A program made the position numbers and the translations under genes. From positions 143,827 to 207,826 of the forward strand of contig JBGAUV010000001.1 in assembly GCA_044228445.1 (NCBI GenBank): a DNA stretch of 64,000 bases, read 5' to 3'. This document shows, piece after piece, positions 12,541 through 50,254 of the stretch. The stretch comes from Minisyncoccia bacterium. Lineage in GTDB: Bacteria > Patescibacteriota > Minisyncoccia > Phycocordibacterales > PALSA-1337. Under the pieces are notes generated by a model, which saw nothing but the letters and a program-made list of their open reading frames with translations, was not told the origin of the DNA and searched no databases. How positions within the stretch are numbered: position 1 is the first letter of the stretch; each line of letters starts with the position of its first letter.

Positions 12541-12542
12541 AG

Positions 12543-34172: not shown

Positions 34173-34174
34173 GG

Positions 34175-35216: not shown

Positions 35217-35273
35217 TATAGTGAGCCTAAGTGTGGGGTAGCTCGGCTTTTTCGTTCTTTGAACATTGTATGG

Positions 35274-35302
35274 TTGACATATACCCCTAGGGGGTATATA
35301 CT
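35274..35302 (+). promoter_or_regulatory. Sigma70-like promoter (TTGACA-17-TATACT) with a CsoR-type GC-rich palindromic operator in the spacer
   Basis: ttgacATATACCCCtagGGGGTATATact; palindrome ATATACCCC/GGGGTATAT resembles the known CsoR operator (TACCC..GGGTA). Confidence 0.7.
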
Positions 35303-35309
35303 ATTGTTT

Positions 35310-35585
35310 ATGAAATACATAGATGAAAAAGGAAAAGAGAAAATTATTAAGCAACTCAAGCGAATTGAGGGGCAGGTTCGCGGTTTACAAAAATTAGTCG
35401 AGAATGATACTTATTGCATTGATGTTATCACTCAAACATCGGCGGTTAAGCAGAGTTTGTCCTCTGTTGAGGATGTATTAATGGAGAATCATTTAGGTCA
35501 CTGTGTTCACCATCAGATGTCTTCTGGTCAAGTTGATAAGGCAAAAGGTGAAGTTCTTAAGGTTTATAAATTAAAAAGAAAATAA
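35310..35585 (+). CDS. csoR: Copper-sensing repressor, CsoR/RcnR family
   Basis: VRGLQKLVENDTYCIDVITQTSAVKQSL...HLGHCVHH (C-H-C metal ligands); the annotated upstream Met would place the operator inside the ORF, so the internal start is used. Confidence 0.8.
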   Translation: MKYIDEKGKEKIIKQLKRIEGQVRGLQKLVENDTYCIDVITQTSAVKQSLSSVEDVLMENHLGHCVHHQMSSGQVDKAKGEVLKVYKLKRK

Positions 35586-35586
35586 T

Positions 35587-36147
35587 ATGAAGATATCAAT
35601 ATATTTAGCATTAGGTTTAGTAGTTGTTGGCGCAATATTGGGCGTTGCTTTTGGATATTATATAACTCCTGATTATAAAGTATCGATGTATGATAAAAAT
35701 ACTATGAGTCTTGGCCAGGCTGACAGAACTTTTGATCTTCGATATGTAAATGCCATGATTTCTCACCATAGAGGTGCCATGCTTCTTGCTGAACAGTTGG
35801 CTAAAAATACTACACGTCCAGAAATGAAGACTTTGGCACAGAATATTCTTGCAGATGAGCCAAAAGCTATCGCTGAACTTTATTCATGGAAAAAGGATTG
35901 GTATGGAGATACTAAAAGCGTGAGAGATCCGATTGTGGCGAATCTAGGTCCAGCAGGAGAGACATTTGATTTACGTTTTCTCAACGCGATCATAGCTCAC
36001 CATGAGGCTGGTATTGTTATGACAAAAGAGACACGACTAAAATCTAGTCGAGCTCAGGTATTGGATAATGCTAATGCGGTCGAGGCATTTCTTTCAAATG
36101 GCCTGCAAACCCTCAAAGGTCTTAGAAGTACTTGGTACAACATTTAA
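35587..36147 (+). CDS. DUF305-family protein (copper-resistance associated)
   Basis: Two repeats of F(D)LRY/FLNAMI.HH..A..M. Confidence 0.8.
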
Positions 36148-36152
36148 TAATC

Positions 36153-38411
36153 ATGACTACACAAATTTTAAAAGTTAAAGGAATGCATTGTGCTAGTTGT
36201 GCTTCAATCATTACCAAGAAGCTCAGTGCAATGCCTCATGTTAAATCGGTCTCGGTAAATTATGGAAATGAAAAAGCTAAGATCGATTATGATGACGCTC
36301 ACATATCGATTGACTCAATGAATGATGAGATAAGTAAGCTCGGATACTCTTTTGTCTCGGAAAATAATCAGGCTAATAGTGGACATGATCATGCTCTCAT
36401 GAAAGCAGATGAACTGGATGAACTTAGAAATAAGACTTCATTTATTATCCCAGTCACAATCACAGTGTTTGCTCTTATGATGTGGGACATTCTTGCACGA
36501 ACAACTGCATGGATGCCAAGTTTGCCAATTCCGATGGCGCTTTTTAATACCATTTCAATGGTTATGGCAACCGTAGCTTTATTTTGGGTTGGCAAACCGT
36601 ATTTGCTTGGCGTAACAAGATTCATAAGACATCGTGTTGCGAACATGGACACCCTCATTGGCCTCGGTACGCTTGTTGCTTATACCTACAGTATCCTTAT
36701 AACACTTTTGCCATCCTTGGGGACTTTATTGCGCGTACCTGAGTATACCTATTTTGACGTAACAATTGTTGTCATCGGTTTTATAACATTAGGCAAATAT
36801 CTAGAAGCACGATCGAAGAAGAAAACTGGAGATGCTATTGAAAAATTACTGAATCTTCAAGCAAAAACAGCCTTAGTTATTCGTAATGGCAAAGAGGTGG
36901 AAGTAAAAATTGATGAAGTTGTTCACGGTGACAGAATTATTATAAAGCCGGGTAGTAAAATCCCGGTTGATGGACTAGTCCTCGAGGGTAGTTCATTTGT
37001 TGATGAATCAATGGTCACTGGTGAACCGATTGCCGTTGAAAAAAAGATTGGTGATAGTGTTGTTGCTGGAACGATTAATACTAGCGGCTCATTTATATTC
37101 GAAGCTAAAAAGGTTGGTAAAGAAACTCTGTTGTCTCAAATTATAAAAATGGTTGAAGATGCACAAGGCAGCAAAGCGCCTATTGAGGCTCTTGCAGATA
37201 AGATATCGGGCATATTTGTTCCTATTGTGCTCATTATTGCTCTCGTTTCTCTCATTGTCTGGCTTGCAGTCGGATCTCAATTCATCGGTTTTTCTCAATC
37301 TGTGTCTCTGGGTATTTTGTCTTTTGTAAGCGTCCTCGTCATTGCTTGTCCTTGTGCTCTTGGTCTTGCAACTCCTACCGCCATTATTGTTGGTGTTGGT
37401 AAAGGCGCTCGAAATGGAATTCTTATCAAAGATGCAGCGTCACTTGAACACTTACATAAGGTAGATACCGTTGTGGTGGACAAAACAGGCACTATTACGC
37501 TAGGCAAGCCAACAGTTGTTGATATTCATAATGAATCCAAATTGAGTAATGATGATTTCATCCGCATTATTGCGTCGCTCGAAAGTAAATCTGAGCACCC
37601 GATTGCACATGCAGTTACTCAATATGCTCATGACAAAAATATAACTTTAGCGAAAGCATTAAGCTTTTCAATTATTCAAGGTAAGGGTCTGAAAGGTGTT
37701 GTGGATGGTACAGAGTATTTTATTGGAAATGCTCAATTGATGAGTGAACTTAAAATTTCTTTCAATCAAAACCAGTTAGACCAGTATACCTCTCAAGGGA
37801 AGACACCCGTTCTTATAAGTACCAAAGACAACTTTCTTGGATTTGTTATGGTCGCAGATGAAGTGAAGAAAGAATCAAAAGACGCAGTGGCGAGTTTGCA
37901 CAAGCTCGGAATAAAAGTAGTTATGCTTACAGGTGACGAAGAGAAAACTGCAAAATACATAGCCTCGCAAGTTGGTATAGACGAAGTGATTGCTCATGTT
38001 TTGCCACAAGACAAAATGGACAAAATTAAGGCGTTACAAGCACAAGGTAAAATCGTGGCCATGGCTGGTGATGGTGTGAATGATGCACCAGCGCTCGCAC
38101 AAGCCAATGTTGGTATTGCTATGGGTACTGGAACTGATGTGGCGATAGAATCAGCAGGCATAACGCTTCTTCATGGTGATATCTCAAAACTGGTAAAGGC
38201 TATTAAACTCTCAAAGATAACTATGCGAGGGATTAAACAAAATCTTTTCTGGGCCTTTATCTACAATATTATTGGCATTCCACTTGCCGCCGGTTTGTTT
38301 TACCCACTCTTCGGTTGGTTGCTAAACCCAATATTCGCAGGCTTTGCCATGGCTATGTCGTCGGTATCGGTTGTATCAAATTCACTTCGTATTAAGGCTA
38401 AAAAATTATAA
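36153..38411 (+). CDS. copA: Copper-translocating P1B-type ATPase
   Basis: N-terminal [11 protein letters not shown]; CPC motif ACPCALG; DKTGTIT; [10 protein letters not shown]. Confidence 0.95.
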
Positions 38412-38416
38412 TTACT

Positions 38417-39448
38417 ATGAACATACAAACACAAAAATACACCTTCCACGTTCACGGCATGCACTGCAATGCATGTGTGCTTATGATAGAGAGCGAGCTT
38501 GGCGATCTGCCAAATATCACTCATGTTAAGTCGAGTCTCAACAATCATTCGGTAGAAGTTATTGGTGATTTTGGAAATAAAACACCAGAACAGATCGCTA
38601 CAGAACTTACGATACCACTCAAATCACACGGATATACTGTATCAGTTGAAAAACAAGTTCATGACAAGAAATGGTCAGACTTTAAGATTGCGATACCCAT
38701 AGCTCTGGGTTTTGCCGTACTCTTTGTTATGTTGCAGAAAATGGGAATCGTAAATCTTGTCAGTGCGGGAAACGTAACTTATGGCACAGCATTTGTAATT
38801 GGTGTTATTGCATCACTTTCGACATGTATGGCGGTTGTTGGTGGTTTAGTTCTCTCAATGTCAGCTACATTTGCTAAAGAGGGAGATAAGGTAAGACCTC
38901 AGCTCATGTTCCATATTGGGAGAATAGTTTCTTTTTTCATTCTCGGTGGTGTTATTGGCGCAATTGGATCAGCATTTACATTAAACACTTCCGCAACATT
39001 TATACTGGGTCTAATTATTGGAATAGTTATGCTTATTCTCGGTATTAATCTTCTTGATACATTCCATTGGGCTAAAAAACTTCAGCCTTCGATGCCAAAG
39101 TTTATTGCAAAACATGCCCACGGTGTTTCAAGATTCAATCATACACTTACTCCGCTTCTTGTCGGTATCGCAACATTCTTCTTGCCATGCGGATTCACTC
39201 AATCAATGCAACTTTATACACTCACAACAGGAAGTTTCCTGCAGGGCGGGCTCACCATGCTTGCATTTGCGCTCGGCACATTACCGGTCCTAGCTCTTAT
39301 TAGCTTCAGTTCATTCAGTATTCAGAAAAGCTCAAAGGCTGGAATCTTCTTCAAAACCGCTGGATTGATAGTCATTATGTTCGCAATATTCAATCTCATT
39401 AATAGCTTGGTGGTGATCGGAATCTTACCTCCAATATTTAATTTTTAG
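38417..39448 (+). CDS. HMA-domain fused to DsbD/CcdA-like thiol-disulfide transporter membrane domain
   Basis: N-terminal HVHGMHCNACV (HMA); membrane domain with FLPCGF and second Cys-containing helix typical of the DsbD_2/CcdA family. Confidence 0.6.
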   Translation: MNIQTQKYTFHVHGMHCNACVLMIESELGDLPNITHVKSSLNNHSVEVIGDFGNKTPEQIATELTIPLKSHGYTVSVEKQVHDKKWSDFKIAIPIALGFAVLFVMLQKMGIVNLVSAGNVTYGTAFVIGVIASLSTCMAVVGGLVLSMSATFAKEGDKVRPQLMFHIGRIVSFFILGGVIGAIGSAFTLNTSATFILGLIIGIVMLILGINLLDTFHWAKKLQPSMPKFIAKHAHGVSRFNHTLTPLLVGIATFFLPCGFTQSMQLYTLTTGSFLQGGLTMLAFALGTLPVLALISFSSFSIQKSSKAGIFFKTAGLIVIMFAIFNLINSLVVIGILPPIFNF

Positions 39449-39461
39449 TATAATCATATTT

Positions 39462-39851
39462 ATGAAAGCAACCGTAATATCAATAATAATTGCAATCGTT
39501 CTCATCGGCGGGGCTTTCATGCTCGCAAATAACAGTGGTGGTACAAATTCTACAGCGAATGCCAACAATGTCAGCATTGTAGATGGTAAACAAATAATCG
39601 AGATTACCGCGCGTGGTGGTTATCAGCCGAGAAATAGTGTAGCCAAAGCGGGCGTACCAACAATAATAAGATTCGAAACCAGTGGAACATTTGATTGTTC
39701 ATCGTCCATTAGGATTCCAAGTTTGAACATCTTCAAATCTCTTCCTCAAACAGGATCTACAGATATTGATGTCGGAACTCAATCAGTTGGTAAACTTGTG
39801 GGTTCCTGCGGAATGGGAATGTATCCTTTTTCAGTTGAATTCAAGAGCTAG
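39462..39851 (+). CDS. Secreted small beta-rich protein with C-terminal Cys/Met cluster (putative copper-binding, cupredoxin-like)
   Basis: N-terminal TM/signal; ...FDCSSS...GSCGMGMYPF; assignment by context in the cop cassette. Confidence 0.3.
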   Translation: MKATVISIIIAIVLIGGAFMLANNSGGTNSTANANNVSIVDGKQIIEITARGGYQPRNSVAKAGVPTIIRFETSGTFDCSSSIRIPSLNIFKSLPQTGSTDIDVGTQSVGKLVGSCGMGMYPFSVEFKS

Positions 39852-39862
39852 ACTTCTTCGAA

Positions 39863-40222
39863 ATGTTCCGGTATGTTCGTCGTGCGATGAAAACATTTGT
39901 AAAAGCGCAAGCGAAAGACGTGAATGGTACGAGCTTCGTTGGATATCTCCAAGCTGATTACGAGCATATGTTCGCGCTTTTCAGCTTTCCTAATGATCGG
40001 ACCCGAGATGATGAGTGGAGATCATCAGACCAAAAGACTCGCTTTGAGTGGGCGTTCAAGATCAAGGGAAAGAAACCAACGGTAGTCACAATTTATGACT
40101 ATAAGGATAATCGGTCGATCGAAGATATTGATATGTGGCATGTGGGCTTAAAGGGGGACCAAGAGAAACTCGAAGTATTTTTCAGAGAACAGCACTTGTT
40201 TGTGATGACCAATCAAAAGTGA
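39863..40222 (+). CDS. Hypothetical protein
   Basis: ORF, GC higher than neighbours; followed by an 18-bp inverted repeat. Confidence 0.3.
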   Translation: MFRYVRRAMKTFVKAQAKDVNGTSFVGYLQADYEHMFALFSFPNDRTRDDEWRSSDQKTRFEWAFKIKGKKPTVVTIYDYKDNRSIEDIDMWHVGLKGDQEKLEVFFREQHLFVMTNQK

Positions 40223-40226
40223 ACTG

Positions 40227-40264
40227 GATGTTAGGTTTAACCTAACATCCAGTCACAATTTAGA
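40227..40264. repeat. Near-perfect inverted repeat (14-18 bp arms)
   Basis: gtgaaCTGGATGTTAGGTTtAACCTAACATCCAGtcac; no T-run after it. Confidence 0.6.
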
Positions 40265-40492
40265 AAAATAGGAACTTTTAATTTGAAATCGATGTATTAA
40301 AGGTTGAGAGCTTAACTTTTAATAAAGATTAGTGAATGGGACCTATTTTGAGGGTGCTTTTCACTGAATATTAGCAAAAAGTGGTGAAAACTTTCGGTTG
40401 CTGGACTTGTTCGTATATTCTTGGCATGTTCATACACATATTGGTTTTAAAGCGTTTCAAGGGCCTTTAGTTAAGTTAATAAAAATGATAAA

Positions 40493-41458
40493 ATGAGCCC
40501 AATGACTACACAGCAAGCAATAAAAGAAATACAGAATAAATTTGATGTGAATGCTATTTTTGCATACAGGGTTTATTCTCTTGCTGATAAGAAGAATTTA
40601 TTTGAAGATGTAGCTAAAATTATTGCTGAAAAACCAAAACCTTTTGTGAAGTGGGTTGGCGGTAAGAGACAACTTCTTGCGCAGTTTCGAAAATTAAACT
40701 TATACCCACCCGAGTTATTCGATATAAAGACTGGTAGATATTTTGAACCATTTGTAGGTGGCGGTGCTGTATTTTTTGATTTACTTCCTGAGAAAGGATT
40801 CCTATCTGATTTAAATAAGGAACTCGTTACTACATACAATGTAATTAAAAATGATGTTGAGGGTTTAATTGCATCACTTAAGAAACATAAGACTGATAAG
40901 GAATATTTTTTGAAGGTCCGAGCACAAGATCCAAATAAACTTAGTGACCTAGCTGTTGCATCACGTTTTATATTCCTGAATAGAACCTGTTTCAATGGAA
41001 TGTATCGAGTAAACAGTAAAGGTGGATTCAATGTGCCGTATGGTAAATACACTAATCCTTTGATTTGTGATGAAAGTAATCTCAAGAAAGTTAATAAAGC
41101 ACTTCAAGATATTGAAATAAAACATCAAGATTACAAAGAGGTTTTGAAGAAGGCTAAAAAGGGAGATTTTATATATTTTGACCCACCCTACTATCCAGTA
41201 AGTAAGACTGCATCATTCACATCGTACACAGCAGAATCATTCCTTGATAAAGAACAAATAGAACTTAGAGATACGGTCCTCGAATTACATAAGCGAGGAT
41301 GCTATGTGATGCTATCAAACTCAGACACGCCATTCATAAATAAGATTTATTCAGGTTTCAAAGGAATACGAATTAACAAAGTTGAGGCTGGCCGAGCCAT
41401 TAACTCAAAAGGATCAGGTAGAGGTAAAATCACCGAGGTTCTTGTAACAAATTACTAA
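40493..41458 (+). CDS. Dam-family N6-adenine DNA methyltransferase (DpnM-like, GATC)
   Basis: VKWVGGKRQLL; FEPFVGGGAVFFDL (motif I); IYFDPPYY (DPPY motif IV). Confidence 0.9.
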   Translation: MSPMTTQQAIKEIQNKFDVNAIFAYRVYSLADKKNLFEDVAKIIAEKPKPFVKWVGGKRQLLAQFRKLNLYPPELFDIKTGRYFEPFVGGGAVFFDLLPEKGFLSDLNKELVTTYNVIKNDVEGLIASLKKHKTDKEYFLKVRAQDPNKLSDLAVASRFIFLNRTCFNGMYRVNSKGGFNVPYGKYTNPLICDESNLKKVNKALQDIEIKHQDYKEVLKKAKKGDFIYFDPPYYPVSKTASFTSYTAESFLDKEQIELRDTVLELHKRGCYVMLSNSDTPFINKIYSGFKGIRINKVEAGRAINSKGSGRGKITEVLVTNY

Positions 41459-41460
41459 AT

Positions 41461-42318
41461 ATGAAAAAAGACTTTAATAATTTAATATCAACATTCAAAA
41501 GCTCAATTAAGACTTGGGATTATTTCGTTAATTGGAATAAAGTATTTTCAAATAGTTCAGAATTAGAAATTGCTTTAAATAAGCTTAACTACCTACTCGG
41601 TAAAGAAAACCTAAAAGAGGAATTTAATAAGTTATACAGCTCAAATCCTGATATTGTGAAAGCTTTACCTGTTTTATTAGCGGTCCGAGAAAATAAACTT
41701 GAAGTATTTGATAAGGCTACTAAGAACTCTGAATTCTTTGATTTTTCGGGTAAGGAAAAAGATTCTGATAAATATTTTGAATTTCTAAGTAAATCAGGTC
41801 TTGCAAAATTATTCCAAAAGGATGGAATTAAAAATCTTGTTGATTATGTTATGGGAGTAGAAGTTGGTCTTGATAGTAATGGACGAAAGAATCGAGGTGG
41901 TACTTTGATGGAAGAAATAACGGGTACATTCCTCAATGATTTCTGTAAAAAGAATGGGTTTGAATGTTTATCTCAAGCACGTTCAAGTGCTATAAAAGCT
42001 AAGTGGGGTTTTGATGTAAGGATAGATAAATCTGAGAGAAGTTTTGATTTTGCTATCTATAATGCAAAGAATAAAAAGCTGAAATTGTTTGAGGCTAATT
42101 TTTATAATGGTGGCGGTTCAAAGTTAAAAGCTGTCTGTGGTGAATTCAAAAGCCTTCATGATGAGCTTAAGTCCCAAGGGATAGATTTTATATGGGTAAC
42201 TGATGGACTAGGTTGGAATACAGCCAAAAGACCACTTGAAGAAACATACAATCACAATGAGTACGTATTTAATCTTAATATGCTCGAATCGGGCGTTCTA
42301 AACGAACTAAAATGGTAA
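41461..42318 (+). CDS. Type II restriction endonuclease, DpnII/MboI family (GATC)
   Basis: NLVDYVMGVEVGLDSNGRKNRGGT...FDFAIYN...FEANFYNGGGSKL...IWVTDGLGW closely tracks the DpnII family. Confidence 0.85.
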   Translation: MKKDFNNLISTFKSSIKTWDYFVNWNKVFSNSSELEIALNKLNYLLGKENLKEEFNKLYSSNPDIVKALPVLLAVRENKLEVFDKATKNSEFFDFSGKEKDSDKYFEFLSKSGLAKLFQKDGIKNLVDYVMGVEVGLDSNGRKNRGGTLMEEITGTFLNDFCKKNGFECLSQARSSAIKAKWGFDVRIDKSERSFDFAIYNAKNKKLKLFEANFYNGGGSKLKAVCGEFKSLHDELKSQGIDFIWVTDGLGWNTAKRPLEETYNHNEYVFNLNMLESGVLNELKW

Positions 42319-42324
42319 CCACCC

Positions 42325-43089
42325 ATGGCAATAAAGAAAGCTACAGAATTAAAACTGCATCCGGAAGAATTCGAACTAGAATGTACAACGGTCTGGGCTT
42401 TTCCTCGTCGTGGTAATTGGGCAACTCACACATCAGATTGGCGTGGTAACTGGTCCCCGGAAGTAGCTCGAAACCTCATTCTTCGATACTCAAAAGAAGG
42501 TGATGTTTTACTTGATTCAATGATTGGTGGTGGTACTACTGCTATTGAGGCAAAGATTTTAAATAGAAATATTATTTATTCTGATGTAAATCAGGTGGCG
42601 CTTGATCGCACAAAGAAAGCTCTCAATTTTAAAGTTGATAATAAGGCATGGCAAAGAGGTTTTAAATGGGATTCACGTAATCTATCCAAAATAAAAGATG
42701 AGACTATAGACTTTGTACTCACTCATCCACCATACGTAGATATTATTAAATACAGTGAAGGAAAATTAGTTGATGATCTGTCTAACATAAGTGATATAGA
42801 TGCTTTCTGTGATGAGATGGAAAAAGTAGCAAAAGAGTTTTATAGGGTCCTAAAACCTGGTAAGTTCTGTGCAATTCTCATAGGAGATACTAGACGAAAG
42901 AAAATGTACCAACCGCTCGCCTACAGGGTAATGGACAGATTTCTTAAAGCAGGACTACTTCTCAAGGAAGATATCATTAAGCGACAATTCAATTGTAAGG
43001 CTACTGGATTCTGGGTGACCAAGTCTAAAGAGGCTAACTTCCTACTTATAATGCATGAGCATCTTTTTGTGTTTCAGAAGACAAAGTAA
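42325..43089 (+). CDS. Second N6-adenine DNA methyltransferase of the DpnII-type system (DpnA-like)
   Basis: DSMIGGGTTAIEA (SAM-binding) and LTHPPYVDII (motif IV). Confidence 0.7.
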   Translation: MAIKKATELKLHPEEFELECTTVWAFPRRGNWATHTSDWRGNWSPEVARNLILRYSKEGDVLLDSMIGGGTTAIEAKILNRNIIYSDVNQVALDRTKKALNFKVDNKAWQRGFKWDSRNLSKIKDETIDFVLTHPPYVDIIKYSEGKLVDDLSNISDIDAFCDEMEKVAKEFYRVLKPGKFCAILIGDTRRKKMYQPLAYRVMDRFLKAGLLLKEDIIKRQFNCKATGFWVTKSKEANFLLIMHEHLFVFQKTK

Positions 43090-43116
43090 CCTAAAAATAT
43101 CCACCAAGAATTTTAG

Positions 43117-43779
43117 TTGAATGATGTTATTCGTGCTAAAATATGTAGAGTCATTTTTATGGAAACAAAAAATATTAAAAAAATTTATTCTACAAATGAT
43201 TTTTTAATAAGATCTGTTTTGCGCGGTATTTTAGAAAAAAAACGAGAGCAATATAGAAAACAAGGTCATAAGGCAGAAATTTTTGATGAGCTTGGTGTAC
43301 AACATGGGGCAAATAGAGTTGACTACGCTATTGTGAATGGAATCATGTGTGGCTTCGAAATAAAAAGTGATCGCGACACGTTGGACCGTCTACCAGAACA
43401 GGTAAAAGAATTTAGTGAAGTATTTGATGAGTTAACTCTTGTTGTTGGAAAAAAACATCTCTATCACGCAATTCATCAGATACCAGATTGGTGGGGTGTT
43501 TGGCTTGCAAAGGAAGATGGGACTGGCTTAGTGGAGATTCAAGTTATCCGCGAGCCTCAGAAAAATAAGTACCAGGATATTAAATCCATCGCTAGATTGC
43601 TTTGGAAAGAAGAAGCTCTGAGAATTTTAGAAGAACGCAACGAAGCAAAGGGTTTAAGAAATAAATCTAGGGAAATTATCTATACAAGGATTAAAGATGT
43701 CTTTGCTTCAGAATTGGATACTTTCAAAGCAAGAGTAAGTCTTACTTTGACTTCGAGAGAAGGTTGGAGAGTTGATTAA
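43117..43779 (+). CDS. PD-(D/E)xK nuclease-fold protein (sce7726-like)
   Basis: RVDYAIVNG...GFEIKSDRD gives a D...E.K catalytic signature. Confidence 0.45.
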   Translation: MNDVIRAKICRVIFMETKNIKKIYSTNDFLIRSVLRGILEKKREQYRKQGHKAEIFDELGVQHGANRVDYAIVNGIMCGFEIKSDRDTLDRLPEQVKEFSEVFDELTLVVGKKHLYHAIHQIPDWWGVWLAKEDGTGLVEIQVIREPQKNKYQDIKSIARLLWKEEALRILEERNEAKGLRNKSREIIYTRIKDVFASELDTFKARVSLTLTSREGWRVD

Positions 43780-44857
43780 TCACCATTGTGATATGGTGAT
43801 TAATACCTGCTGTTAGCCATGTTTGAGGGCTACCAGTGGTCTTTGCATTCACGTCAGCTTTTTCATGTATATATTCATCTCCAAAACTGAAATCTTTTCC
43901 TTTGAAAAAATTCTGTCCAGCAAGAAGTTGTGCTTGTGCGGGGTACTGTTTATATCCTGCACCTTTTTTATTTTTCAGTCCTTCTCCTCTTAATACTTCC
44001 CAAGTATCTTCATTCGTATAGCGAATGCTAGCGCTCGTGTTAACCCCGACCATATGACCATAATAAATAGGGTGTTGAATCGTATAGTCAGAAAATATAG
44101 GCTTTCTAGTTATTGTTGGATTTCCAAGTATATCCTTCCAAACCTTCCAATCGTATCTTTCGATTTTGTAGTGCCCATGTTTTTCATAGTCGGATAAGTC
44201 TCTGGGAAATGAGCCTCCGGTTAGTATTACAGAACGCCATTTATCAAGATGAGGTATCAATGAAAGTTTGCTTGATACAGCTTGAGATGTCATTTGTTGA
44301 TCTACTATCTTTAAATCGATTAGAAGATCAATGTTGCTATGGTCCAAACCCTCATCTTTTATAAACTCATTTATCTTTGTCGCTGTTTCGTTGTTTAGGT
44401 GTGAATCATCAATGCGAATACACAGACCTCTATCATTAGACTTGGCAAATTTCATAGCGATTTTTTTAGTCTCAGCGTCTGCATCCGTACTTATGGCCGG
44501 AATGATATAAGTAACTGGAATGGAGAACAGATCGGACTGGTTTGCTGTAGTCAGTATCTGATCAAAAGCAGATGCACGTATATCACCATCCAAGAGGTGA
44601 ACATCAACAAAGAATGGTTCTTTGCCCCAGTGCTCAATAATGCCAGATGTTATTTCTGGTAGGTTTCTTAAAAACTTAGTCTTTGAGTCTTCAAGAATTT
44701 TTTTATAGTCAGTTTTATCAATCTTGGGTGGTGGCAAGATGAACTCAAACAATGGTGTAACGTTTGTACGGTCCTTACTGAACAAATGTTTGAGAGCTCG
44801 CGTCTCAGCTGGTCTCCATCGGATTATAGGCACGTAAGATTTTATTGGATTTTTCAT
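43742..44857 (-). CDS. Beta-protein-family (sce7725-like) protein
   Basis: N-terminus KSYVPIIRWRPAETRALKHL matches the Beta_protein family opening (YVPILK.K..E..AL); convergent with and overlapping the sce7726-like gene by 38 nt. Confidence 0.45.
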   Translation of the reverse strand: MKNPIKSYVPIIRWRPAETRALKHLFSKDRTNVTPLFEFILPPPKIDKTDYKKILEDSKTKFLRNLPEITSGIIEHWGKEPFFVDVHLLDGDIRASAFDQILTTANQSDLFSIPVTYIIPAISTDADAETKKIAMKFAKSNDRGLCIRIDDSHLNNETATKINEFIKDEGLDHSNIDLLIDLKIVDQQMTSQAVSSKLSLIPHLDKWRSVILTGGSFPRDLSDYEKHGHYKIERYDWKVWKDILGNPTITRKPIFSDYTIQHPIYYGHMVGVNTSASIRYTNEDTWEVLRGEGLKNKKGAGYKQYPAQAQLLAGQNFFKGKDFSFGDEYIHEKADVNAKTTGSPQTWLTAGINHHITMVINQLSNLLSKSK

Positions 44858-44878
44858 GTTGGGTAATTTTAATAGTAA

Positions 44879-46111
44879 TTATTTGCTAGCGAATATATCC
44901 GGGAAGAGCCATTGGACACGAGACTCAGCATTCGTAACTATTTTATTAAGGTAATAATAGTTTTGATGTTTGAAGCGAATGATTCCAGCGACTACGGATA
45001 TGTGTACACCTAACTCATTTGCAAGACTTTGTGCGGCCATAGCTGAAGGTATGACTTTTGCGGGACTGATTTCCCATTTTGCCTTCGGTAGAATAGCTTC
45101 CTCAGCAAGCTCGTCAGCTTCTTCTTCTGTATCTTTAGAACTAAACTCAACACCTTTTTTGTCTTGGAGTTTTTCATCAAAGAACGAATCAAAGTCGCCA
45201 CCATAGTGTTTGATTATGTGTGCCAATTCGTGAAGAAGGGTGAACCAGAAATTATCTAGTCGATCGTGTCTTAGAGTTAGTCCAATTATAGGATTTTCTT
45301 TTTCAGTTAATATTGCGGCACCATCGAGGTGTGTTTTAGGAAGATGGGGTTCAATAACAAGTTTGATACCTACGTCTGCTAACATTTTAATAGCTTTTCT
45401 CGGACCATCTGTGTCTACACTGAGCTTGATTAAAGCTCTCATAAAAGAAATATCTAATGAACCATGTTTATATTTAACAGGAACTTTCATTTTGTCGGCT
45501 TTCTGCACTACACGAATTTGCCAAGCAAGCAAAGCATCTTTATCGGTTAAGATTGCTGATCTGTAGCTTGTTTTTCTTAATAACGCAACAGGTTGAAGTC
45601 TTAATGATCCTAATGAAGTAAATAAGCCATCAAGCAAATCTGATTTTGTATTGTTCTTTAGTGTTTTCTTACCAAAATATCCTCGGTTTTCCATTAACTT
45701 AACAAGTCGAATATCCCAACGCTCATATTTTGAGTCTGGGTTAGCGTCAGTCTTTTGAATTAATACTTTTGCAGGTATACCGAGACCTGTTTCAAGGGCA
45801 CGTATCATCTCGAGAGATAATGGTCGTTTGCCTGAAAGTACTTCTGAGACTCTGCTACGACTACCGATGTAAGGTATTAGATCTGCTGGTTTGAGATCGG
45901 CTTGTTCCATTCGGAAATTGATAGCTTCAATGGGGGTGGGTAGTGATTGGGGGAGTGTCCTAGATTCATATTCTTGAATAAGAGTAGTAAGGAGTGTAAG
46001 TTGTTCACCTTCAACAGATTCTGGATTAGGATCAAGATTCATTAACTCCTCAACTGATTTGAGGGCGTCACGATAGTCTTGTTCGGTTTTTATTACTTTG
46101 ATGTTGTTCAT
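44879..46111 (-). CDS. HigA-like antitoxin: N-terminal HTH fused to DUF955/ImmA-like Zn-peptidase domain
   Basis: HELAHIIKH (HExxH) in the C-terminal half; immediately downstream of the HigB toxin gene. Confidence 0.65.
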   Translation of the reverse strand: MNNIKVIKTEQDYRDALKSVEELMNLDPNPESVEGEQLTLLTTLIQEYESRTLPQSLPTPIEAINFRMEQADLKPADLIPYIGSRSRVSEVLSGKRPLSLEMIRALETGLGIPAKVLIQKTDANPDSKYERWDIRLVKLMENRGYFGKKTLKNNTKSDLLDGLFTSLGSLRLQPVALLRKTSYRSAILTDKDALLAWQIRVVQKADKMKVPVKYKHGSLDISFMRALIKLSVDTDGPRKAIKMLADVGIKLVIEPHLPKTHLDGAAILTEKENPIIGLTLRHDRLDNFWFTLLHELAHIIKHYGGDFDSFFDEKLQDKKGVEFSSKDTEEEADELAEEAILPKAKWEISPAKVIPSAMAAQSLANELGVHISVVAGIIRFKHQNYYYLNKIVTNAESRVQWLFPDIFASK

Positions 46112-46118
46112 ATTTTTG

Positions 46119-46406
46119 CTAACCTATATCCCAGTTATCATATTCCTTGTGTGTGCCGACCTTTTTTATAAGCACAACCTGGTTTTTGTAGTTTATCTGT
46201 ACTAGGACTCGGTACTTATTGTGACAGATGTCGAATATTACATGCTGGTTCTTTACTAAACTTGCCTTCCTATATCTTTCCTTGAGTTCATGAGGGGTTT
46301 GCCACTTAGCATTCTCAACTTCAGCTTCCCACGAGTCTATGTGGGACCTTGCATCGGTGTGCCTCTCTTTGAAATCTTGTGTAATTTTTTTGCCTAGTAA
46401 TTTCAT
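46119..46406 (-). CDS. higB: HigB-family toxin (RelE/ParE superfamily)
   Basis: FDICHNKYRVLVQINYKNQVVLIKKVGTHKEYDNWD. Confidence 0.7.
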   Translation of the reverse strand: MKLLGKKITQDFKERHTDARSHIDSWEAEVENAKWQTPHELKERYRKASLVKNQHVIFDICHNKYRVLVQINYKNQVVLIKKVGTHKEYDNWDIG

Positions 46407-46549
46407 TTGTCACAGAAGGGTCCACTGATACATTAATAAATGTTCCCATAGTGGGAATACTATACCTAGTACGATTGGAAGTCAAGATTCTTTTCATAAT
46501 GGTCCATTTTTGATATAAAAGACCCCATAATTAGCCCCTAAATGCCCCT

Positions 46550-46804
46550 GTGTACGCTTTTCAGGCGAGGTTCGGGGGTAATTACAAACATATGATTTCA
46601 AAACAAGCGTTAGAAGAATTCAAAGAGATTTGGCGAAAGGAAAACCCTGGCCAAGATATCGACGATGCAACTGCAATGGATCAGGCAGTAGCTTTGCTTA
46701 CTCTCATGGATACAGTCTACAGACCAGTGAAGAAAGAATGGCTCGAAAAGTATAAGAGCGAAGTGGTTGAAGAAAATAGTGAAGACAAGGGTAGGGTGAA
46801 ATAA
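46550..46804 (+). CDS. Small conserved hypothetical protein (paralog of 33906..34172); 3' end overlaps a DGR-flanking repeat
   Basis: Shared motif with the other element's small ORF; last 22 nt are one copy of the AGTGAAGACAAGGGTRGGGT repeat. Confidence 0.35.
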   Translation: MYAFQARFGGNYKHMISKQALEEFKEIWRKENPGQDIDDATAMDQAVALLTLMDTVYRPVKKEWLEKYKSEVVEENSEDKGRVK

Positions 46805-47043
46805 CCTAAGGTCGTTATTTACGATAAAACTTTACAACTTGATAACGCCTGATCATGCCTGTTAACTCCTGACCGTCAATACGGTTAAATTACGGTGGTC
46901 GACCTGATAGAACAGGAAAATAACAGGTGAACTGGTCCGCAAAGAATTTGCGGTGATTACGGTCACTTAGAAGTAGTCCGAAATAGTGAATGAGACAGTG
47001 GGGTAATAGCCTAAATTACCCATATTAGTCTGTTTTATCGGTA

Positions 47044-47072
47044 TTGACAATAGTGCAATATGGGTGTATAAT
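47044..47072 (+). promoter_or_regulatory. Perfect consensus sigma70 promoter upstream of the DGR target gene
   Basis: TTGACAatagtgcaatatgggtgTATAAT (17-nt spacer); 5' UTR contains a 9-bp perfect stem GGTCATAGC...GCTATGACC. Confidence 0.65.
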
Positions 47073-47212
47073 AGTTACATAGTTCTTTGATAAGAATTGC
47101 GAGTTGGTCATAGCGAAAAGCGGCTCAATCTTGGGCCCCTCCTTGCTATGACCACACCGGCCCATAGTGCCTCCTCGGCGTAGAGGGAAACCAAAAAGAA
47201 AGGAAACTGACC

Positions 47213-47926
47213 ATGAATACCATGCTCAGCAAGGCGCTCCGCGAATTCACAACCGGACCGCTCAATCAGCTCATTGTGAACCTCGGTGGCCAGGAAGGCG
47301 ACCAATGGGAAGAGGAACTGAAGAAGTTTCTCCGCAAGGAACCCTGTTGGAGTAACGGACAGGTCGCGCAAGTGACCCAACCGAAAACCAAGCCCTCGAT
47401 CCTCGAGCTCGTCTCGACTGTCGTGGTCTCGGCAACCACCAGCAAGTTCATCGCCAAAGATAAGTTCGTGGTCAACACCAAGCGCAACGCTCCGGTGAAG
47501 ATCTCGGCAGTCTGGGACAACTTCACCAGCTGGTTCCTGTCGGGCGACGGCAAGACCGAAGACCCTATCAGCGAACAGACGCTCCGCTACCACAAATTGC
47601 GGAAGTCTTCAGTTGATGGTCCCATCATTACCGAACTGGGTGGCGAGGAGAAATCCGAAACCACTTTGACGGAAATGTTCTCCTTGATGGAGAAGCAGAA
47701 GAATGGTGAAGACGGTGTTCTCTTGAACAACGGCTACGCCAACATCTTCTACATTCGGGACCAGAATGGTGTGCTTCGCGCGGTCGACGTGTGCTGGTTC
47801 GACGACGGCTGGGACGTCGATGCGTTCTCCGTCGAGAACCCGGGCAGGTGGTCTGATGGCTACCAGGTGTTCTCTCGCAATTCTGTTCTCGAATCCTCGG
47901 AACCTTCGGCTCCGGCGCAAGCCTGA
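47213..47926 (+). CDS. DGR target (variable) protein with C-terminal variable region
   Basis: C-terminus ...GVLRAVDVCWFDDGWDVDAFSVENPGRWSDGYQVFSRN is the VR counterpart of the TR; ~55% GC in an AT-rich genome. Confidence 0.85.
   Translation: MNTMLSKALREFTTGPLNQLIVNLGGQEGDQWEEELKKFLRKEPCWSNGQVAQVTQPKTKPSILELVSTVVVSATTSKFIAKDKFVVNTKRNAPVKISAVWDNFTSWFLSGDGKTEDPISEQTLRYHKLRKSSVDGPIITELGGEEKSETTLTEMFSLMEKQKNGEDGVLLNNGYANIFYIRDQNGVLRAVDVCWFDDGWDVDAFSVENPGRWSDGYQVFSRNSVLESSEPSAPAQA
47768..47877 (+). repeat. DGR variable repeat (VR), 110 bp
   Basis: Aligns to the TR with 14 mismatches, every one at a TR adenine (AAC to GAC/TGC/TTC/GGC/TAC; AAT to GAT/TCT). Confidence 0.9.
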
Positions 47927-48243
47927 TCCTTTGTCCCTTGGACCCTTTGACCCTCGGTCTGCTTCGGCGGATTGGGGGTCAATTTTTTATATTTAAATTT
48001 CTCTTGCTATACTTATTTCCGAAATCATGTGTTACGTGACGGTTACGGCTTTCACGTCATGGTCTTAAGATATTTTTCTCGAGAGTCACACTGGGTATGC
48101 CTTGTGTGAGAGTGGGGAAAGTCTCTTCAAAAAAATAACAAGAATTGGTATATGAGATTAGCGGACTTTGAGGTCCCAGATAAAATTCAGCTGGTCATGG
48201 TTTGGCTGGCGGTGATATAGATGATCTTGTATACGATAACGCT

Positions 48244-48353
48244 GGTGTGCTTCGCGCGGTCAACGTGAACTGGAACGACGACGGCTGGAACGTCAATGCG
48301 AACTCCGTCGAGAACCCGAACAGGTGGAATGATGGCAACCAGGTGTTCTCTCG
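48244..48353 (+). repeat. DGR template repeat (TR), 110 bp
   Basis: Asn-codon-rich (AAC/AAT) copy of the VR; the enclosing ORF 48202..48483 is not considered coding. Confidence 0.9.
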
Positions 48354-48376
48354 AAACTGTTGGTTTTCTCCTCGGC

Positions 48377-48768
48377 TTAAGGTCGGGGAGTTTTTGCTTG
48401 CAAACCCTTCTTCCAACCACCAAGTTGTCGCCCTATTTCCTCAAGTTTTCCGATTAAGTCCGAGTATGTATCAGTTGGAATAATTTTACTTTCCCATGCG
48501 AGTTGTACAAAGAACTTCACAATATCAAGTTTTGTGATGGCTTTGTTTAATATTGGTATTTTGTGTTCAGGTGGGAGATAAGAAAGACAGAATGTGTATT
48601 CAAGTACATCAAGAAAAGCCTGTTCAATTCTGTTTCCAATTCCATACCGCTCGACTTTCGGAAAATCACGATAGATAGAGAGCCAAAAACGATATGTCTC
48701 TTTCGATTTGAGAATTACCTGTGGTAATTCTCGGGGGGGGTAATATGATCCTTATTAGTATGAGTCAT
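48377..48768 (-). CDS. avd: DGR accessory variability determinant (Avd), antisense to TR/RT; frame interrupted at a G8 tract
   Basis: Minus-strand translation ...ELPQVILKSKETYRFWLSIYRDFPKVERYGIGNRIEQAFLDVLEYTF...VKFFVQLAWESKII...IGKLEEIGRQLGGWKKGLQAK is an Avd four-helix bundle; no canonical in-frame start, but the ATG at 48768..48766 joins this frame if the 48733..48740 G8 run were G9. Confidence 0.65.
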
Positions 48769-49755
48769 GAGTATAAGAATATCATATCCATCAAAAATCT
48801 ATGCGATGCGTGGACCGAATTTATATGTGGCAAGAAATCTAAAAAGGACGTTGCTGAATTTTCTCTGAATCTCTCTCAAAACATTTTCAAATTGCACGAG
48901 GAACTGCGAACAAAAACGTATAGACATGGTGCATACGAAGCTTTTTCGATAAGTGATCCGAAACCGAGAAGTATTCACAAGGCTACGGTCCGAGATAGAT
49001 TATTGCATCATGCTATTTACAGGATTTTGTATCCCTATTTTGATAAAAAGTTTATTTATGATTCTTACTCCTGTCGACAGTTCAAAGGAACACATCGAGC
49101 GTTAAATCGGTTCAATGATTTCGTGATGAAAGTATCACAAAGTAATAGCAGGGCATGCTGGGTTTTGAAATGCGATGTAAGAAAGTTTTTCGCATCTATT
49201 GATCATGAAAAGCTTATTGAAATATTCAAGCGACATATTAATGATATGGAAACGATCTGGCTTGTTGAACGCATTGTTGAGAGTTTTCAAAGTACTGGTC
49301 CAGGAAAGGGTTTGCCTTTAGGTAACCTGACCTCGCAACTCTTGGTAAATGTTTACATGAATGAGTTCGACCAGTTTGTGAAGCACAAGCTCAAAGCTAA
49401 GTATTATATTCGGTATGCCGATGACTTCGTTATTATGCACCATGAGAAAGATGTGTTGGTGGATATTCTGCCAAAGGTCCAGAGCTTTCTCAGTGAGCAA
49501 CTAAAGCTGTCTCTTCATCCAGATAAGGTGTTTATAAAGACAGCTTCATCAGGCGTAGATTTTCTGGGCTGGGTCCATTTTCCGCACCATCGAGTGATAC
49601 GGACAACAACAAAAAATCGTATGTTCAAGAAAATCAAAGATTCTCAAGAAAAGCCGGAAGTCGTCCAGTCGTACCTCGGACTTTTGAGTCATGGTAATGG
49701 TTGGAAATTGAAACAGAGAGTTAAGGATAAAATAGTGAAGACAAGGGTGGGGTAA
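48745..49755 (+). CDS. DGR reverse transcriptase
   Basis: RT motifs LKCDVRKFFASIDH, LPLGNLTSQLLVNVYMNEFD (DGR-type [LI]GxxxSQ), YIRYADDFVIM (YxDD), LHPDKVFI, FLGW; start taken at ATG 48745 (or 48760). Confidence 0.9.
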   Translation: MILISMSHEYKNIISIKNLCDAWTEFICGKKSKKDVAEFSLNLSQNIFKLHEELRTKTYRHGAYEAFSISDPKPRSIHKATVRDRLLHHAIYRILYPYFDKKFIYDSYSCRQFKGTHRALNRFNDFVMKVSQSNSRACWVLKCDVRKFFASIDHEKLIEIFKRHINDMETIWLVERIVESFQSTGPGKGLPLGNLTSQLLVNVYMNEFDQFVKHKLKAKYYIRYADDFVIMHHEKDVLVDILPKVQSFLSEQLKLSLHPDKVFIKTASSGVDFLGWVHFPHHRVIRTTTKNRMFKKIKDSQEKPEVVQSYLGLLSHGNGWKLKQRVKDKIVKTRVG

Positions 49756-50254
49756 CCCAATAAATTTACCCGTAATAACGGGAAATTAACGGGAAGTCAC
49801 TTTTTTGCAACATAGTGAGTGAGAGTGTGGGGTAAGACTGATAAAGCAGTTAAAAAGCAGTCTCGCACTCCGTTGTTAATACAACGTGAAAACAACGGCA
49901 GTTATTGCCGTTAAAAAACAGTGAAAAAACGGTTAACACCCGCCCTTTAAAAAGGGTAAAAAAGGGCGTAGTTATTATAAATACAGATCTGATACAGAGA
50001 AGAAATTACTTTTTAGATACAGTGAGTGCTGGTGTAGGGTAACAATCTTTGAAGCTTGGAATGTAGATCGTAGCATCGTCGATTTTTCGGAAGATTTCTG
50101 TAACTTGAGCGACCACGCGACCCCAAGAAATGTCTCAAAAATATAGAATTATTATTAGTATGTTTTAATAAAAAACAGTTTTAAATTAATTTGATTTAAT
50201 CTAATACTAAACAAAATTCTATTGTATAATATAAACATAATATTATATTAAAAA

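Follow-up and report, generated by a model that had tools for sequence, protein, structure and literature searches.

The direct repeats around the DGR in the window (the whole 64-kb stretch of DNA analyzed here) belong to a ~19-kb serine-recombinase mobile island at 30954-50125, which is inserted at the 3' end of a tRNA-His gene. The repeated motif is part of the island's integration module and not of the DGR, which is carried here as cargo inside an array of motif copies, between copies B and C (Table 1). The same motif-bearing integration module characterizes a family of mobile elements of Patescibacteria, consisting of islands and one prophage, that insert at tRNA-His. From sequence comparisons, we propose with a probability of roughly 0.55 that the motif is a cis site at which modules may be joined, and lost again, by recombination between direct copies.

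Table 1. Features of the island and its right-end array, in window coordinates (L numbers denote related loci).
Feature	Position	Strand	Remarks
tRNA-His (GTG)	30880-30953	+	Found by ARAGORN and Rfam; 3' end is the left island junction (attL)
Large serine recombinase (LSR), 529 aa as integrated	30942-32531	-	Pfam Resolvase, Recombinase, Zn_ribbon_recom
Motif copy Z	35220-35241	+	Between the leftward backbone operon (wHTH gene to LSR) and rightward cargo
Cargo block	35242-46520	+	Pfam: csoR/copA copper operon, DpnII restriction-modification, Beta_protein, IrrE-HTH, HigB
Conserved leader X	46521-46591	+	86-98% identity in L001, L102-L112, L126; upstream of small ORF
Small ORF, 70 aa	46592-46804	+	Core gene of the module; in minimal islands L102/L103
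Motif copy A	46778-46799	+	Within the last codons of the small ORF
Spacer unit	46800-46984	+	Separates A from B (A to B, 207 bp); found in states I and III, missing in II
Motif copy B	46985-47006	+	Left DGR insertion limit compared with state I islands
DGR cargo	47007-49733	+	Between copies B and C; RT ends at 49755 within C
DGR promoter, TTGACA-17-TATAAT	47044-47072	+	In DGR cargo
DGR target gene	47213-47926	+	VR at 47767-47880
TR	48243-48356		In DGR cargo
avd	48377-48742	-	In DGR cargo
RT	48745-49755	+	Stop codon from motif C
Motif copy C, A type	49734-49755	+	Fused to RT 3' end; provides RT stop codon
Unit tail1	49756-49813	+	80 bp motif-to-motif; invariant CCCGTAATAACGGGAAATTAACGGGAA at 49769-49795 (12-locus alignment)
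Motif copy D	49814-49835	+	Motif match
Unit tail2	49836-50020	+	Hairpins with minus-strand T-runs; repeated a-N4-a'-N5-7-a' elements
Detached LSR 3' reading frame	50006-50125	-	RVVAQVTEIFRKIDDATIYIPSFKDCYPTPALTVSKK, then stop; open and conserved in 8 loci
Motif copy E	50021-50042	+	Minus strand codes ..CYPTPALTVS.. of the LSR C-terminal tail

GC content rises from ~0.30 to 0.37-0.52 between 31 and 50 kb. The island junctions, set by flank changes in six related loci (L001, L004, L098, L103, L108, and L112) together with right-flank synteny with L001, lie at 30953/30954 (..CCACCCCA/TTCGAG..) and 50125/50126 (..GCGACCCCA/AGAAAT..), with attR after the ..GCGACCCCA at 50125. Related islands in L018, L098, and L103 occupy the same tRNA-His end. 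The LSR reading frame extends across attL to a TAG stop codon within the tRNA gene, giving the integrated protein the C-terminus ..ILEWGG; its NCBIfam matches were distant ones to XisF/Ccr (CcrA/B/C) families, below cut-off. The detached reading frame next to attR is in frame with the LSR gene both in the reconstructed attP and in the natural P-P' joint of L098/L109, and two database proteins (P0126 and P0128) join what appears by eye to be a recombinase-like C-terminal fragment to this LSR tail. The last 37 LSR codons are encoded by the same DNA as motif copy E and the last unit, in a frame that is continuous only in the excised (attP) form. Integration removes these 37 codons from the LSR gene, a truncation that, judged from the reading frames, would constitute a testable switch between integrated and excised forms.

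The right end of the island is a conserved module in which the 70-aa ORF is followed by a motif-plus-hairpin array, and it recurs in minimal islands of 3-5 kb and at the end of one prophage (L122). Minimal islands L102 and L126 consist of tRNA-His, an LSR relic (~390 bp by DNA match), the small ORF, and the array; L103 has tRNA-His, a whole-length LSR (84% DNA match), the small ORF, and an array with a DGR. The complete module comprises the LSR, the 70-aa ORF, and three to six motif-plus-hairpin units that end at the attachment site. The small ORF product, a small, acidic protein with only 68 homologs and no family match, was modeled as a two-helix hairpin (pLDDT 84) with no fold match and no recognizable DNA-binding fold; we infer that it is a candidate directionality or regulatory factor. 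An element related to leader X follows the RT stop codon in L001, L006, L018, and L098.

Searching the window for AGTGA-N8-GTRGGGTRA with at most one mismatch gave six matches, all on the + strand (starting at 35220, 46778, 46985, 49734, 49814, and 50021), whereas dinucleotide shuffles averaged 0.06 matches and never exceeded 1. This formal search bore out the motif family noticed in the sequence-only reading, which had placed copies near 46986, 49815, and 50023 (matches at 46985, 49814, and 50021); five of the six copies are those it had described, and copy Z lies beyond the range it covered. Two copies do bracket the ~2.95-kb target/TR/avd/RT unit, as had been claimed, but the first starts at 46778, within a repeat that begins at 46773, and not at 46783. 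Their positions at the 3' ends of the small ORF and RT gene, in different frames (..ENSEDKGRVK and ..KIVKTRVG before the respective stops), were also correctly described. The two repeats (46773-46797 and 49729-49753) are identical at 24 of 25 positions and spaced by 2956 bp; we estimate that chance would produce ~1e-4 such pairs in 64 kb. Over the related loci, the consensus extends to ATAGTGAR-N7-GTRGGGTAA, an asymmetric sequence of ~24 bp, and all 82 copies scoring at least 25 bits in 26 loci lie on the small-ORF strand. The motif is bipartite, with half-sites AGTGAR and nGTRGGG ~12 bp apart that are invariant in coding and non-coding contexts, around a variable N8; its left part is conserved and its right side variable. 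A T-run precedes the motif, which includes a -10-like nATAGT.

Arrays occur in three states: A-207-B-80-D..E (state I), A joined directly to tail1 (state II), and A-207-B-(DGR)-C-80-D..E (state III). The window, L103, L104, and L107 carry the DGR between B and an additional copy, C; no DGR lies between B and the next unit in L098/L109, L105, L106, and L108; and the spacer is missing too in L001, L102, and L110. On a tree built from X and the small ORF, the states are mixed among close relatives; the tree is weak (235 nt), and recombination may itself affect it. Homology blocks shared with the window (L001, L102, L105, L106, L108, L109, L110, and L126) stop exactly at motif edges, at 46797, 47005/47006, 49729/49730, and 49833-49835, the stops at 46797 and 47006 lying around the spacer. 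In L105, L106, L108, and L109, homology halts at 47005/47006 and resumes at motif C/tail1 or just within it (49730 in L105, 49769 in L106 and L108) or, further in, at 49908 (L109).

Cargo lies between motif copies elsewhere as well. Segments of 4-6 kb occupy this position in three other islands: 4.1 kb between A and A' of L123 (23/24 identical), 6.4 kb between E and E' of L119, and 6.2 kb between E and E' of L126. The window has an 11.7-kb copper/restriction/toxin block between copies Z and B, compared to a single Z in L018/L098, which lack this block between Z and the DGR promoter. One Z copy each is found at the equivalent place in L018, L098, L119, and L123, joined to different cargo. At its left edge, the motif is fused to two unrelated genes, RT (in the window, L002, L004, and L103) and an unannotated gene (L112), and identity between the window and L126 is 97.5% left of A and 84.9% right of it. 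In all, the motif marks cargo joints in at least five independent cases. Other junctions lie away from it, namely the left edge of the L001 DGR, the LSR/small-ORF joint of L103, the truncated small ORF of L115, and the left joint of L112.

If the motif is a site of module joining and loss, then a circle with one motif copy would insert into a resident copy, and two direct copies would permit deletion of the segment between them; the 24/25 A/C repeat would represent two 'A-type' copies around an inserted spacer-B-DGR segment. An element-encoded protein (the small ORF product, the LSR, or both) would probably bind the motif, or the motif would be cut at its edges. In the excised form, the array hairpins with minus-strand T-runs would most likely terminate transcription from both the full-length LSR gene and the convergent small ORF. 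Several observations count against a recombination site: the absence of dyad symmetry, the lack of resemblance by eye to the element's own attachment sites, the plain two-helix hairpin modeled for the small ORF, and the junctions that lie outside the motif edges. Nor does the motif look like a serine-integrase att site, as the copies are internal and not at the two island junctions, the asymmetric sequence lacks dyad symmetry of ~40-50 bp about a central dinucleotide, and by eye it has only the hexamer ACCCCA in common with the junction sequences, in inverted orientation. A simpler route is possible, in which all three states arise from state III via deletion between direct repeats of 9-25 bp, a process that requires no dedicated recombinase. 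It is also possible that the duplicated copies stem from tandem island fusion and subsequent deletions. We consider it unlikely that the motif is the recombination site of a hitherto undescribed cassette-capture system, an integron-like platform with different chemistry, in which kb-sized cargo (complete DGRs, restriction, and toxin modules) would be gained or released at an asymmetric 24-bp site, by whole-site duplication upon each insertion or by recombination of a circle with a resident site, under the control of the LSR and 70-aa protein or of a host enzyme.

It is possible, if rather doubtful, that the motif is solely a protein-binding or regulatory site, serving near attR, for example, as an operator or architectural site for a directionality factor or repressor, with another copy at the backbone operon and no dedicated cassette recombination. 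Cargo would then border the motif because variants that keep the site survive and because short direct repeats or protein-bound fork barriers favor deletion. The asymmetric, bipartite site, with half-sites that stay invariant whether coding or not as N8 varies, fits this idea, as does the position of copy Z directly upstream of the leftward operon leading to the LSR, and direct-repeat deletion can yield every array state. There are precedents: the DNA-binding Xis of phiRv1, a serine-integrase system, has several direct sites within attP/attR, and the Cox boxes of P2 function both in regulation and in excision. By itself, however, regulation does not explain why, in four independent cases, cargo is flanked by two copies with the same type of N8, and it leaves unexplained the gene 3' ends fused exactly at the left motif edge. 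In addition, minimal islands encode only the LSR and the small acidic two-helix protein, which lacks a DNA-binding fold, and the copies span 0.4-0.8 kb rather than crowding at the crossover. Alternatively, the units could be RNA elements: they may be short transcripts or modules of 3'-UTRs in which the motif serves as a conserved 5' segment or seed, or a terminator stack between the convergent small ORF and full-length LSR gene, with the motif acting at the RNA level, a reading that we regard as decidedly improbable. The four hairpins described in the sequence-only reading are all present (CCCGTaataACGGG at 49769-49782, CGTTGTtaatACAACG at 49872-49887, AACGGCAgttatTGCCGTT at 49894-49912, and CGCCCTTT..AAAGGGCG at 49941-49968), and folding of the hairpin region is somewhat more stable than that of shuffled sequences for both strands (z-scores -1.8 to -3.4). 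T-runs follow hairpins on the minus strand and a T-run precedes the motif with its internal -10-like sequence; by eye, the motif GGGTAA pairs with a downstream TTACCC-like arm, with loop and arm varying between loci, and the a-N4-a'-N5-7-a' elements recur with different sequences. Two minus-strand array sites passed an intrinsic terminator scan and a third (AACGGCAataacTGCCGTT GTTTTC) fell just under threshold; over the whole region, 7 sites were counted where 3.7 were expected. Terminators could account for the hairpins, not for the motif. The earlier suggestion of a structured RNA found no positive support: a search of the array against Rfam 15 gave nothing at gathering score or E <= 1 except a chance-level RnaG hit (23 bits vs a cut-off of 153), and RNAalifold returned a single invariant 5-bp hairpin with no covariation. 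Moreover, by eye the motif lacks a convincing sigma-70 promoter geometry on either strand (spacing 12-15), its conservation is just as strong in three different coding contexts, and an RNA role leaves the cargo junctions unexplained.

Also proposed from the single sequence were RT recognition elements and att-like boundaries of a mobile DGR cassette. That the repeats are DGR-specific in either sense, as RT/Avd recognition elements or att sites of a self-mobile cassette, is very improbable and is contradicted already by the comparative data. In the window, the unit of target, TR, avd, and RT does have a copy on either side, four loci have a copy fused to the 3' end of RT, and the boundary idea is right to the extent that B and C flank the DGR in the four state III arrays and that the DGR is missing from the same array in L098/L109, L105, L106, and L108. 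But the motif also bounds unrelated cargo and occurs where the DGR is elsewhere or absent: arrays without a DGR carry it (L102, L105, L106, L108, L122, L123, and L126), the L018/L098 DGR has it on one side only, and in L001 the same DGR module (92% identity) lies upstream of X and the small ORF, outside the array. Recognition by RT is countered by absence of the motif downstream of RT homologs in L003 (94%), L005 (89%), L006 (82%), and ~75 more distant loci; the RT C-termini of L001, L003, L005, and L006 differ from the start of motif C onward. Among 80 RT-homology loci, only those with the same island end have the motif, with arrays in L001, L002, and L004 and single copies in L018 (variant Z), L045, and L049; copies of at least 25 bits are confined to L001, truncated L002 and L004, and the island end L049. 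A DGR accessory element (IMH, TR-flanking RNA, or RT/Avd site) was rejected on the same grounds, as the motif does not co-occur with RT/TR and its place relative to the DGR differs among the window, L001, and L018/L098. The remark that none of these features is a known DGR feature was correct.

DGRs are very common in Patescibacteria, and to our knowledge it is not understood how they spread from one genome to another. In this island, an entire DGR (promoter, target, TR, avd, and RT) acts as one of several interchangeable cargo units on a small, tRNA-His-targeting LSR element, and a false lead is removed because the motif is not a DGR component. If the motif is a true recombination site, it would represent a new route of cargo assembly on mobile elements in a large uncultured bacterial branch and might serve as a DNA-insertion tool. 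Even without a recombination role, the analysis defines the island along with its core module and attachment sites.

Among known systems, an iteron replication origin was rejected, as the spacings are irregular (207, 80, 136-207, and ~2750 bp) and no Rep family was found. An attC site was rejected as well: Pfam scanning of the 20 island ORFs turned up only a serine recombinase, by eye the R''-L''..L'-R' arrangement with its RYYYAAC/GTTRRRY core is missing in the six copies, GGGTAAC/GTTACCC do not match the core, and A, D, E, and Z have no inverted partner. Resemblance to integron cassettes nevertheless exists in the one-orientation cargo units that each end in a recombination-site-like repeat, often over an ORF 3' end, in the presence or absence of single units between close relatives, and in the hairpin that forms part of the site in some copies (GGGTAA..TTACCC). 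Unlike integrons, the island lacks an IntI tyrosine recombinase and attI, its motif is conserved as an asymmetric sequence whereas attC is conserved as a structure, and its cargo has its own promoters (TTGACA-17 consensus, with -10 TATAAT for the DGR target and TATACT for csoR). Like the TnsB sites of Tn7, Mu end sites, and Xis/Cox boxes, the motif forms several asymmetric ~22-bp sites at irregular spacing within a few hundred bp of one end; unlike them, it has neither inverted copies at the other end nor a transposase, one of its copies is 15 kb distant, where backbone meets cargo, and cargo lies between copies. In the integration-dependent switches of temperate mycobacteriophages, attP lies within an ORF and integration alters the C-terminus. 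The island likewise has an attachment site inside a reading frame, with an LSR that is 37 codons longer when excised, although in the phages a repressor gene is split and the integrase is a tyrosine recombinase, whereas here the serine recombinase's own gene is split. Composite SCC elements of staphylococci (SCCmec, ACME, and others) have Ccr large serine recombinases and repeats of the integration-site sequence; the SCC repeat is the att core itself, whereas the motif here differs from the real junctions, is not the integration-site core of the recombinase, and also forms a hairpin-unit array at one element end. The island shares with SCC an LSR (with the distant Ccr matches below cut-off), insertion at the 3' end of a conserved gene, a repeat that overlaps the last codons of an ORF, and serial cargo modules parted by direct copies of a short sequence.

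Between 31 and 50 kb of the window, GC content rises from ~0.30 to 0.37–0.52, and right of position 50125 the gene order (M23 peptidase and others) is syntenic with that of the related genome L001. Because of this synteny, and because the sequence beyond ..GCGACCC(C)A differs in each related island, the mobile island spans 30954 to 50125, with the DGR (a retroelement with target, VR, TR, avd, and RT) among its cargo.

Features of the island and of other parts of the window (LSR, large serine recombinase)
Feature	Position	Strand	Remarks
Second GC-rich stretch	~5000-14000		GC up to 0.55; probably another integrated element
LOOT RNA	8461-8578	+	Rfam RF03000, 76 bits; within second GC-rich stretch
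tRNA-Lys	14087-14160	-	adjoins second GC-rich stretch
tRNA-His	30880-30953		left edge of GC-rich stretch
LSR	30942-32531	-	Resolvase, Recombinase, Zn_ribbon_recom domains
Four small/unknown genes	between LSR and Z		all on the minus strand; last encodes winged-helix protein
Weak motif-like match	32646-32677	-	17-19 bits; in 3' end of 452-aa backbone gene
Motif copy Z	35220	+	between winged-helix gene and copper operon
csoR promoter	35274-35302		TTGACA .. TATACT; encloses perfect palindrome TATACCCCTAGGGGGTATA, presumably the CsoR operator
Cargo genes	after Z		csoR/copA copper operon, DpnII restriction-modification, Beta_protein gene, IrrE-HTH gene, HigB
Conserved leader	46521-46591		..CCCnTAATTnCCnC..GTGTACGCTTTTC..; upstream of small ORF
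Small ORF	46592-46804		70 aa; ends in motif A
Motif A	46778	+	followed by 207-bp unit
Motif B	46985	+	followed by DGR
DGR	after B		target with VR, TR, avd, RT
DGR consensus promoter	47044-47072		
DGR target-gene 5' leader	47075-47212	+	hairpin at 47105-47154
RT-9 RNA, sub-threshold Rfam match	48032-48143	+	between target gene and TR; 33.5 bits vs gathering 46.1, E = 0.008
avd	48377-48742	-	opposite to TR and RT
Motif C	49734	+	fused to last RT codons; followed by 80-bp unit
Motif D	49814	+	followed by 207-bp unit
Motif E	50021	+	followed by final stretch ending ..GCGACCCCA at 50125

Six matches to an asymmetric motif, AGTGA-N8-GTRGGGTRA, were found in the 64-kb window at no more than one mismatch, all on the plus strand, compared with a mean of 0.06 in shuffled versions of the same sequence. 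The motif family proposed in a sequence-only reading is thus real, and formal repeat finding recovered the near-perfect repeat pair of that reading as 46773–46797 and 49729–49753 (24 of 25 positions identical, spacing 2956 bp). Its individual motif copies were also confirmed, except that the first coordinate was 5 bases too high and the copy at 35220 lies beyond the range it covered, and all four hairpins of the right-hand stretch are there as it described. The motif comprises two half-sites ~12 bp apart and is unlike the element's own attachment sites; by eye, resemblances to tRNAs or att cores are short and weak at most. Counterparts of the weak minus-strand match in the backbone gene are kept in three related islands (L018 1712, L097 5658, L098 5666).

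A comparison of homologous DGRs argues against a DGR role for the motif, such as the RT recognition elements that were one option of the sequence-only reading. Among 80 genome loci retrieved through homology to the RT, whose close relatives in Patescibacteria number in the thousands, a motif array follows the RT only in L001, L002, and L004 (RT 93–97% identical); L045 and L049 each have a single copy, L018 has a variant Z copy, and other sequence follows the RT in L003 (94%), L005 (89%), and L006 (82%). The 26 loci with the 70-aa ORF contain 82 motif copies scoring at least 25 bits, every one on the strand of that ORF. Loci lacking the ORF have none at this threshold, the exceptions being truncated contigs of the same array, L049, and viral contigs selected by pattern. 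Judged by this distribution, the motif does not belong to the DGR. Viral contigs of IMG/VR scanned with the generic motif gave 16 single matches, roughly the chance number by our estimate, none with an array and some of them unrelated palindromes.

Several features of the DGR and its relatives were observed along the way. The avd frame is open for 121 codons and has no ATG, GTG, or TTG in its first ~74 codons, and its region is 98–99% identical in L001 and L002. The target-gene 5' leader keeps 92% identity in L001 and 83% in L018, despite only 62% protein identity of the L018 RT, and is possibly conserved as a structured leader. Directly after the RT in L003 (~1965–2260) and L005 (~7150–7410) is a tRNA gene split by an intron-like insertion of ~200 nt.

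Sequence comparison assigns the motif array instead to a module, comprising the 70-aa ORF, its conserved leader, and the array, that occupies the right end of islands at tRNA-His. Two kinds of minimal element keep it: in L102/L126, the small ORF and array are combined with tRNA-His and an LSR relic whose DNA match covers only ~390 bp; in L103, they are combined with tRNA-His and an LSR matching over its whole length (84% by DNA), and the array contains the DGR. The module is common to phages and islands, because a prophage-like region (L122, 1–12307) carrying terminase, HNH, YopX, and NinG genes also ends with the small ORF and a motif array. The small-ORF family is narrow (68 proteins, 58–96% identity), with no match in Pfam, PHROG, or NCBIfam. 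AlphaFold models the small-ORF product as a two-helix hairpin (pLDDT 84), for which Foldseek found no structural neighbor in the PDB (best E-value 2), an exact-match query with the small ORF of the window gave no record, and a literature search for the module found no description. The same or a related leader element stands directly after the RT stop in L001 (7031–7100), L018 (~7030–7170), L098 (~10990–11135), and L006 (~6480–6640).

The last unit of the island is, by its reading frame, the detached 3' end of the LSR gene. From 50125 to 50006 the minus strand has an uninterrupted frame that is conserved across eight loci (..GRVVAxVxxIFxxIDDATIYIPSFKDCYPTPALT[IV]SKK*), and when the right end is joined to the left end, as by excision, this segment is in frame with the LSR and gives a 565-aa protein. 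The integrated LSR ends after 529 aa at a TAG within tRNA-His, so integration swaps its last 37 codons for two codons and a stop. A frame that crosses the attachment site could possibly act as a switch between the integrated and excised forms. A natural joint is present in L098/L109, where 47 nt of the LSR 3' end lie beside the tail, in frame, and P0126 and P0128 are database proteins in which an apparent C-terminal fragment of another recombinase (by eye) is joined to the same tail. A 47-nt direct repeat (20643–20690, 3971–4017) bounds the L098 island on both sides and runs from the tRNA end into the 3' coding part of the recombinase gene. This makes the right end of the L098 island an attP-like joint, which an element previously inserted at that site may have left. 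Differences in motif E among loci sit at third codon positions (TAC CCy ACA CCn GCn CTC ACT), and thus E is also under coding constraint. E alone retains an open and conserved frame on the minus strand, and we rejected the idea that the other copies are recombinase 3'-end relics of tandem insertion, as these have minus-strand stops and zero similarity to the tail peptide. The small ORF and the tail of the recombinase both contain IDDAT (inverted repeat 46651–46671/50070–50090), probably by chance, as orthologs do not keep it (IDDKT in L098, for example).

The 80-bp unit, the D unit, and this recombinase tail make up the hairpin-rich stretch, which folds moderately better than shuffled sequence on either strand (z = -1.8 to -3.4). 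The earlier proposal of a structured RNA found no counterpart in Rfam and no covariation in the 80-bp unit after C, whose hairpin is invariant. That unit holds an invariant CCCGTAATAACGGGAAATTAACGGGAA, and each unit contains at least one a-N4-a'-N5-7-a' element of differing sequence (CCGTcaatACGGttaaattACGG, GCCGTTaaaaAACGGTgaaaaAACGG, CCTGCAaaTGCAGGtaaaaTGCAGG). Because T-runs follow the stems on the minus strand, the hairpins fit putative terminators 3' of the complete recombinase frame, which after excision converges with the small ORF. The a-N4-a'-N5-7-a' elements, an inverted pair with a second direct copy ~11 bp on and A-tracts between, are found at 46840–46980, 49769–49795, and 49870–49970 and in matching units of related loci, with half-sites that vary by unit.

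Arrays occur in three states: A-207-B-80-D..E (I; L098/L109, L105, L106, L108), A joined directly to the 80-bp unit (II; L001, L102, L110), and A-207-B-[DGR]-C-80-D..E (III; the window, L103, L104, L107, and the right part of L002 and L004). Homology blocks of the window stop at motif edges (46797, 47005/47006, 49729/49730, 49833–49835), and identity to L126 is 97.5% left of A and 84.9% right of A. In a neighbor-joining tree of leader and small ORF, based on an alignment of only 235 nt, the states are intermixed, with the window (III) beside L102 (II), L105 (I) beside L107 (III), and L001 (II) beside L106 (I), which points to repeated events. Cargo also lies between copies of the same type, with A/A' flanking 4.1 kb in L123 (duplicated stretch AATAGTGAAGACGA[T/G]GGTGGGGT) and E/E' flanking 6.4 kb in L119 and 6.2 kb in L126. 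In L018 and L098 a single Z copy separates the winged-helix gene from the DGR promoter; by comparison, the window has an extra 11.7 kb from Z to B. In L119, Z adjoins yet another sequence. Moreover, the left edge of the motif is the fusion point of two unrelated genes, the RT in the window and an unannotated gene in L112 (..ALG|NSEDKCGVTQ*). The L001 RT reads AAGATAG where the window has AAAATAG|TGAAGAC, a microhomology that could have mediated the RT fusion.

These comparisons establish the motif as a cis element of the integration module, conserved and oriented, whose edges are strongly preferred break-and-join points. Dedicated recombination is not needed for the array states themselves, as deletions between direct repeats (9–25 bp), starting from state III, could yield all three, and same-type duplicates could arise by tandem fusion of islands followed by deletions. 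Some junctions also lie away from motifs (the DGR left edge in L001; the joint of LSR and small ORF in L103; a further junction in L115). Set against the deletion and fusion routes are four independent same-type duplicates around cargo and gene fusions exactly at the left edge, the outcome expected if a circle with a single site inserted site-specifically. Because of these duplicates and fusions, we read the motif as a junction site where recombination between direct copies would add and remove modules. In such a mechanism, site-specific insertion of a one-site circle would place cargo between same-type copies and fuse genes at the left edge; a circular DGR cassette would join RT..AGTGAAGACAAGGGTGGGGTAA directly to TAGCCTAAATTACCC, and the empty site would have B directly on the 80-bp unit that now follows C. 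The recombinase, the small-ORF product, and the winged-helix protein are candidate binders of the motif and of CCCGTAATAACGGGAAATTAACGGG.

Promoter functions for the motif were considered and rejected. Its reverse complement has CTCACTAT, as in a T7-type promoter, but the conserved part is longer, a polymerase gene is absent, and the viral matches are at chance level. For sigma-70, TTACCC and CACTAT/TATATT on the minus strand are only 12–15 nt apart, and the plus strand has a -10-like nATAGT without a -35. Separate consensus promoters follow Z and B.

If the motif is a true cassette-recombination site, the interest of the module rises. Composite SCC islands and integron cassette arrays are the closest known arrangements, and the defining features of each are found here only in part.
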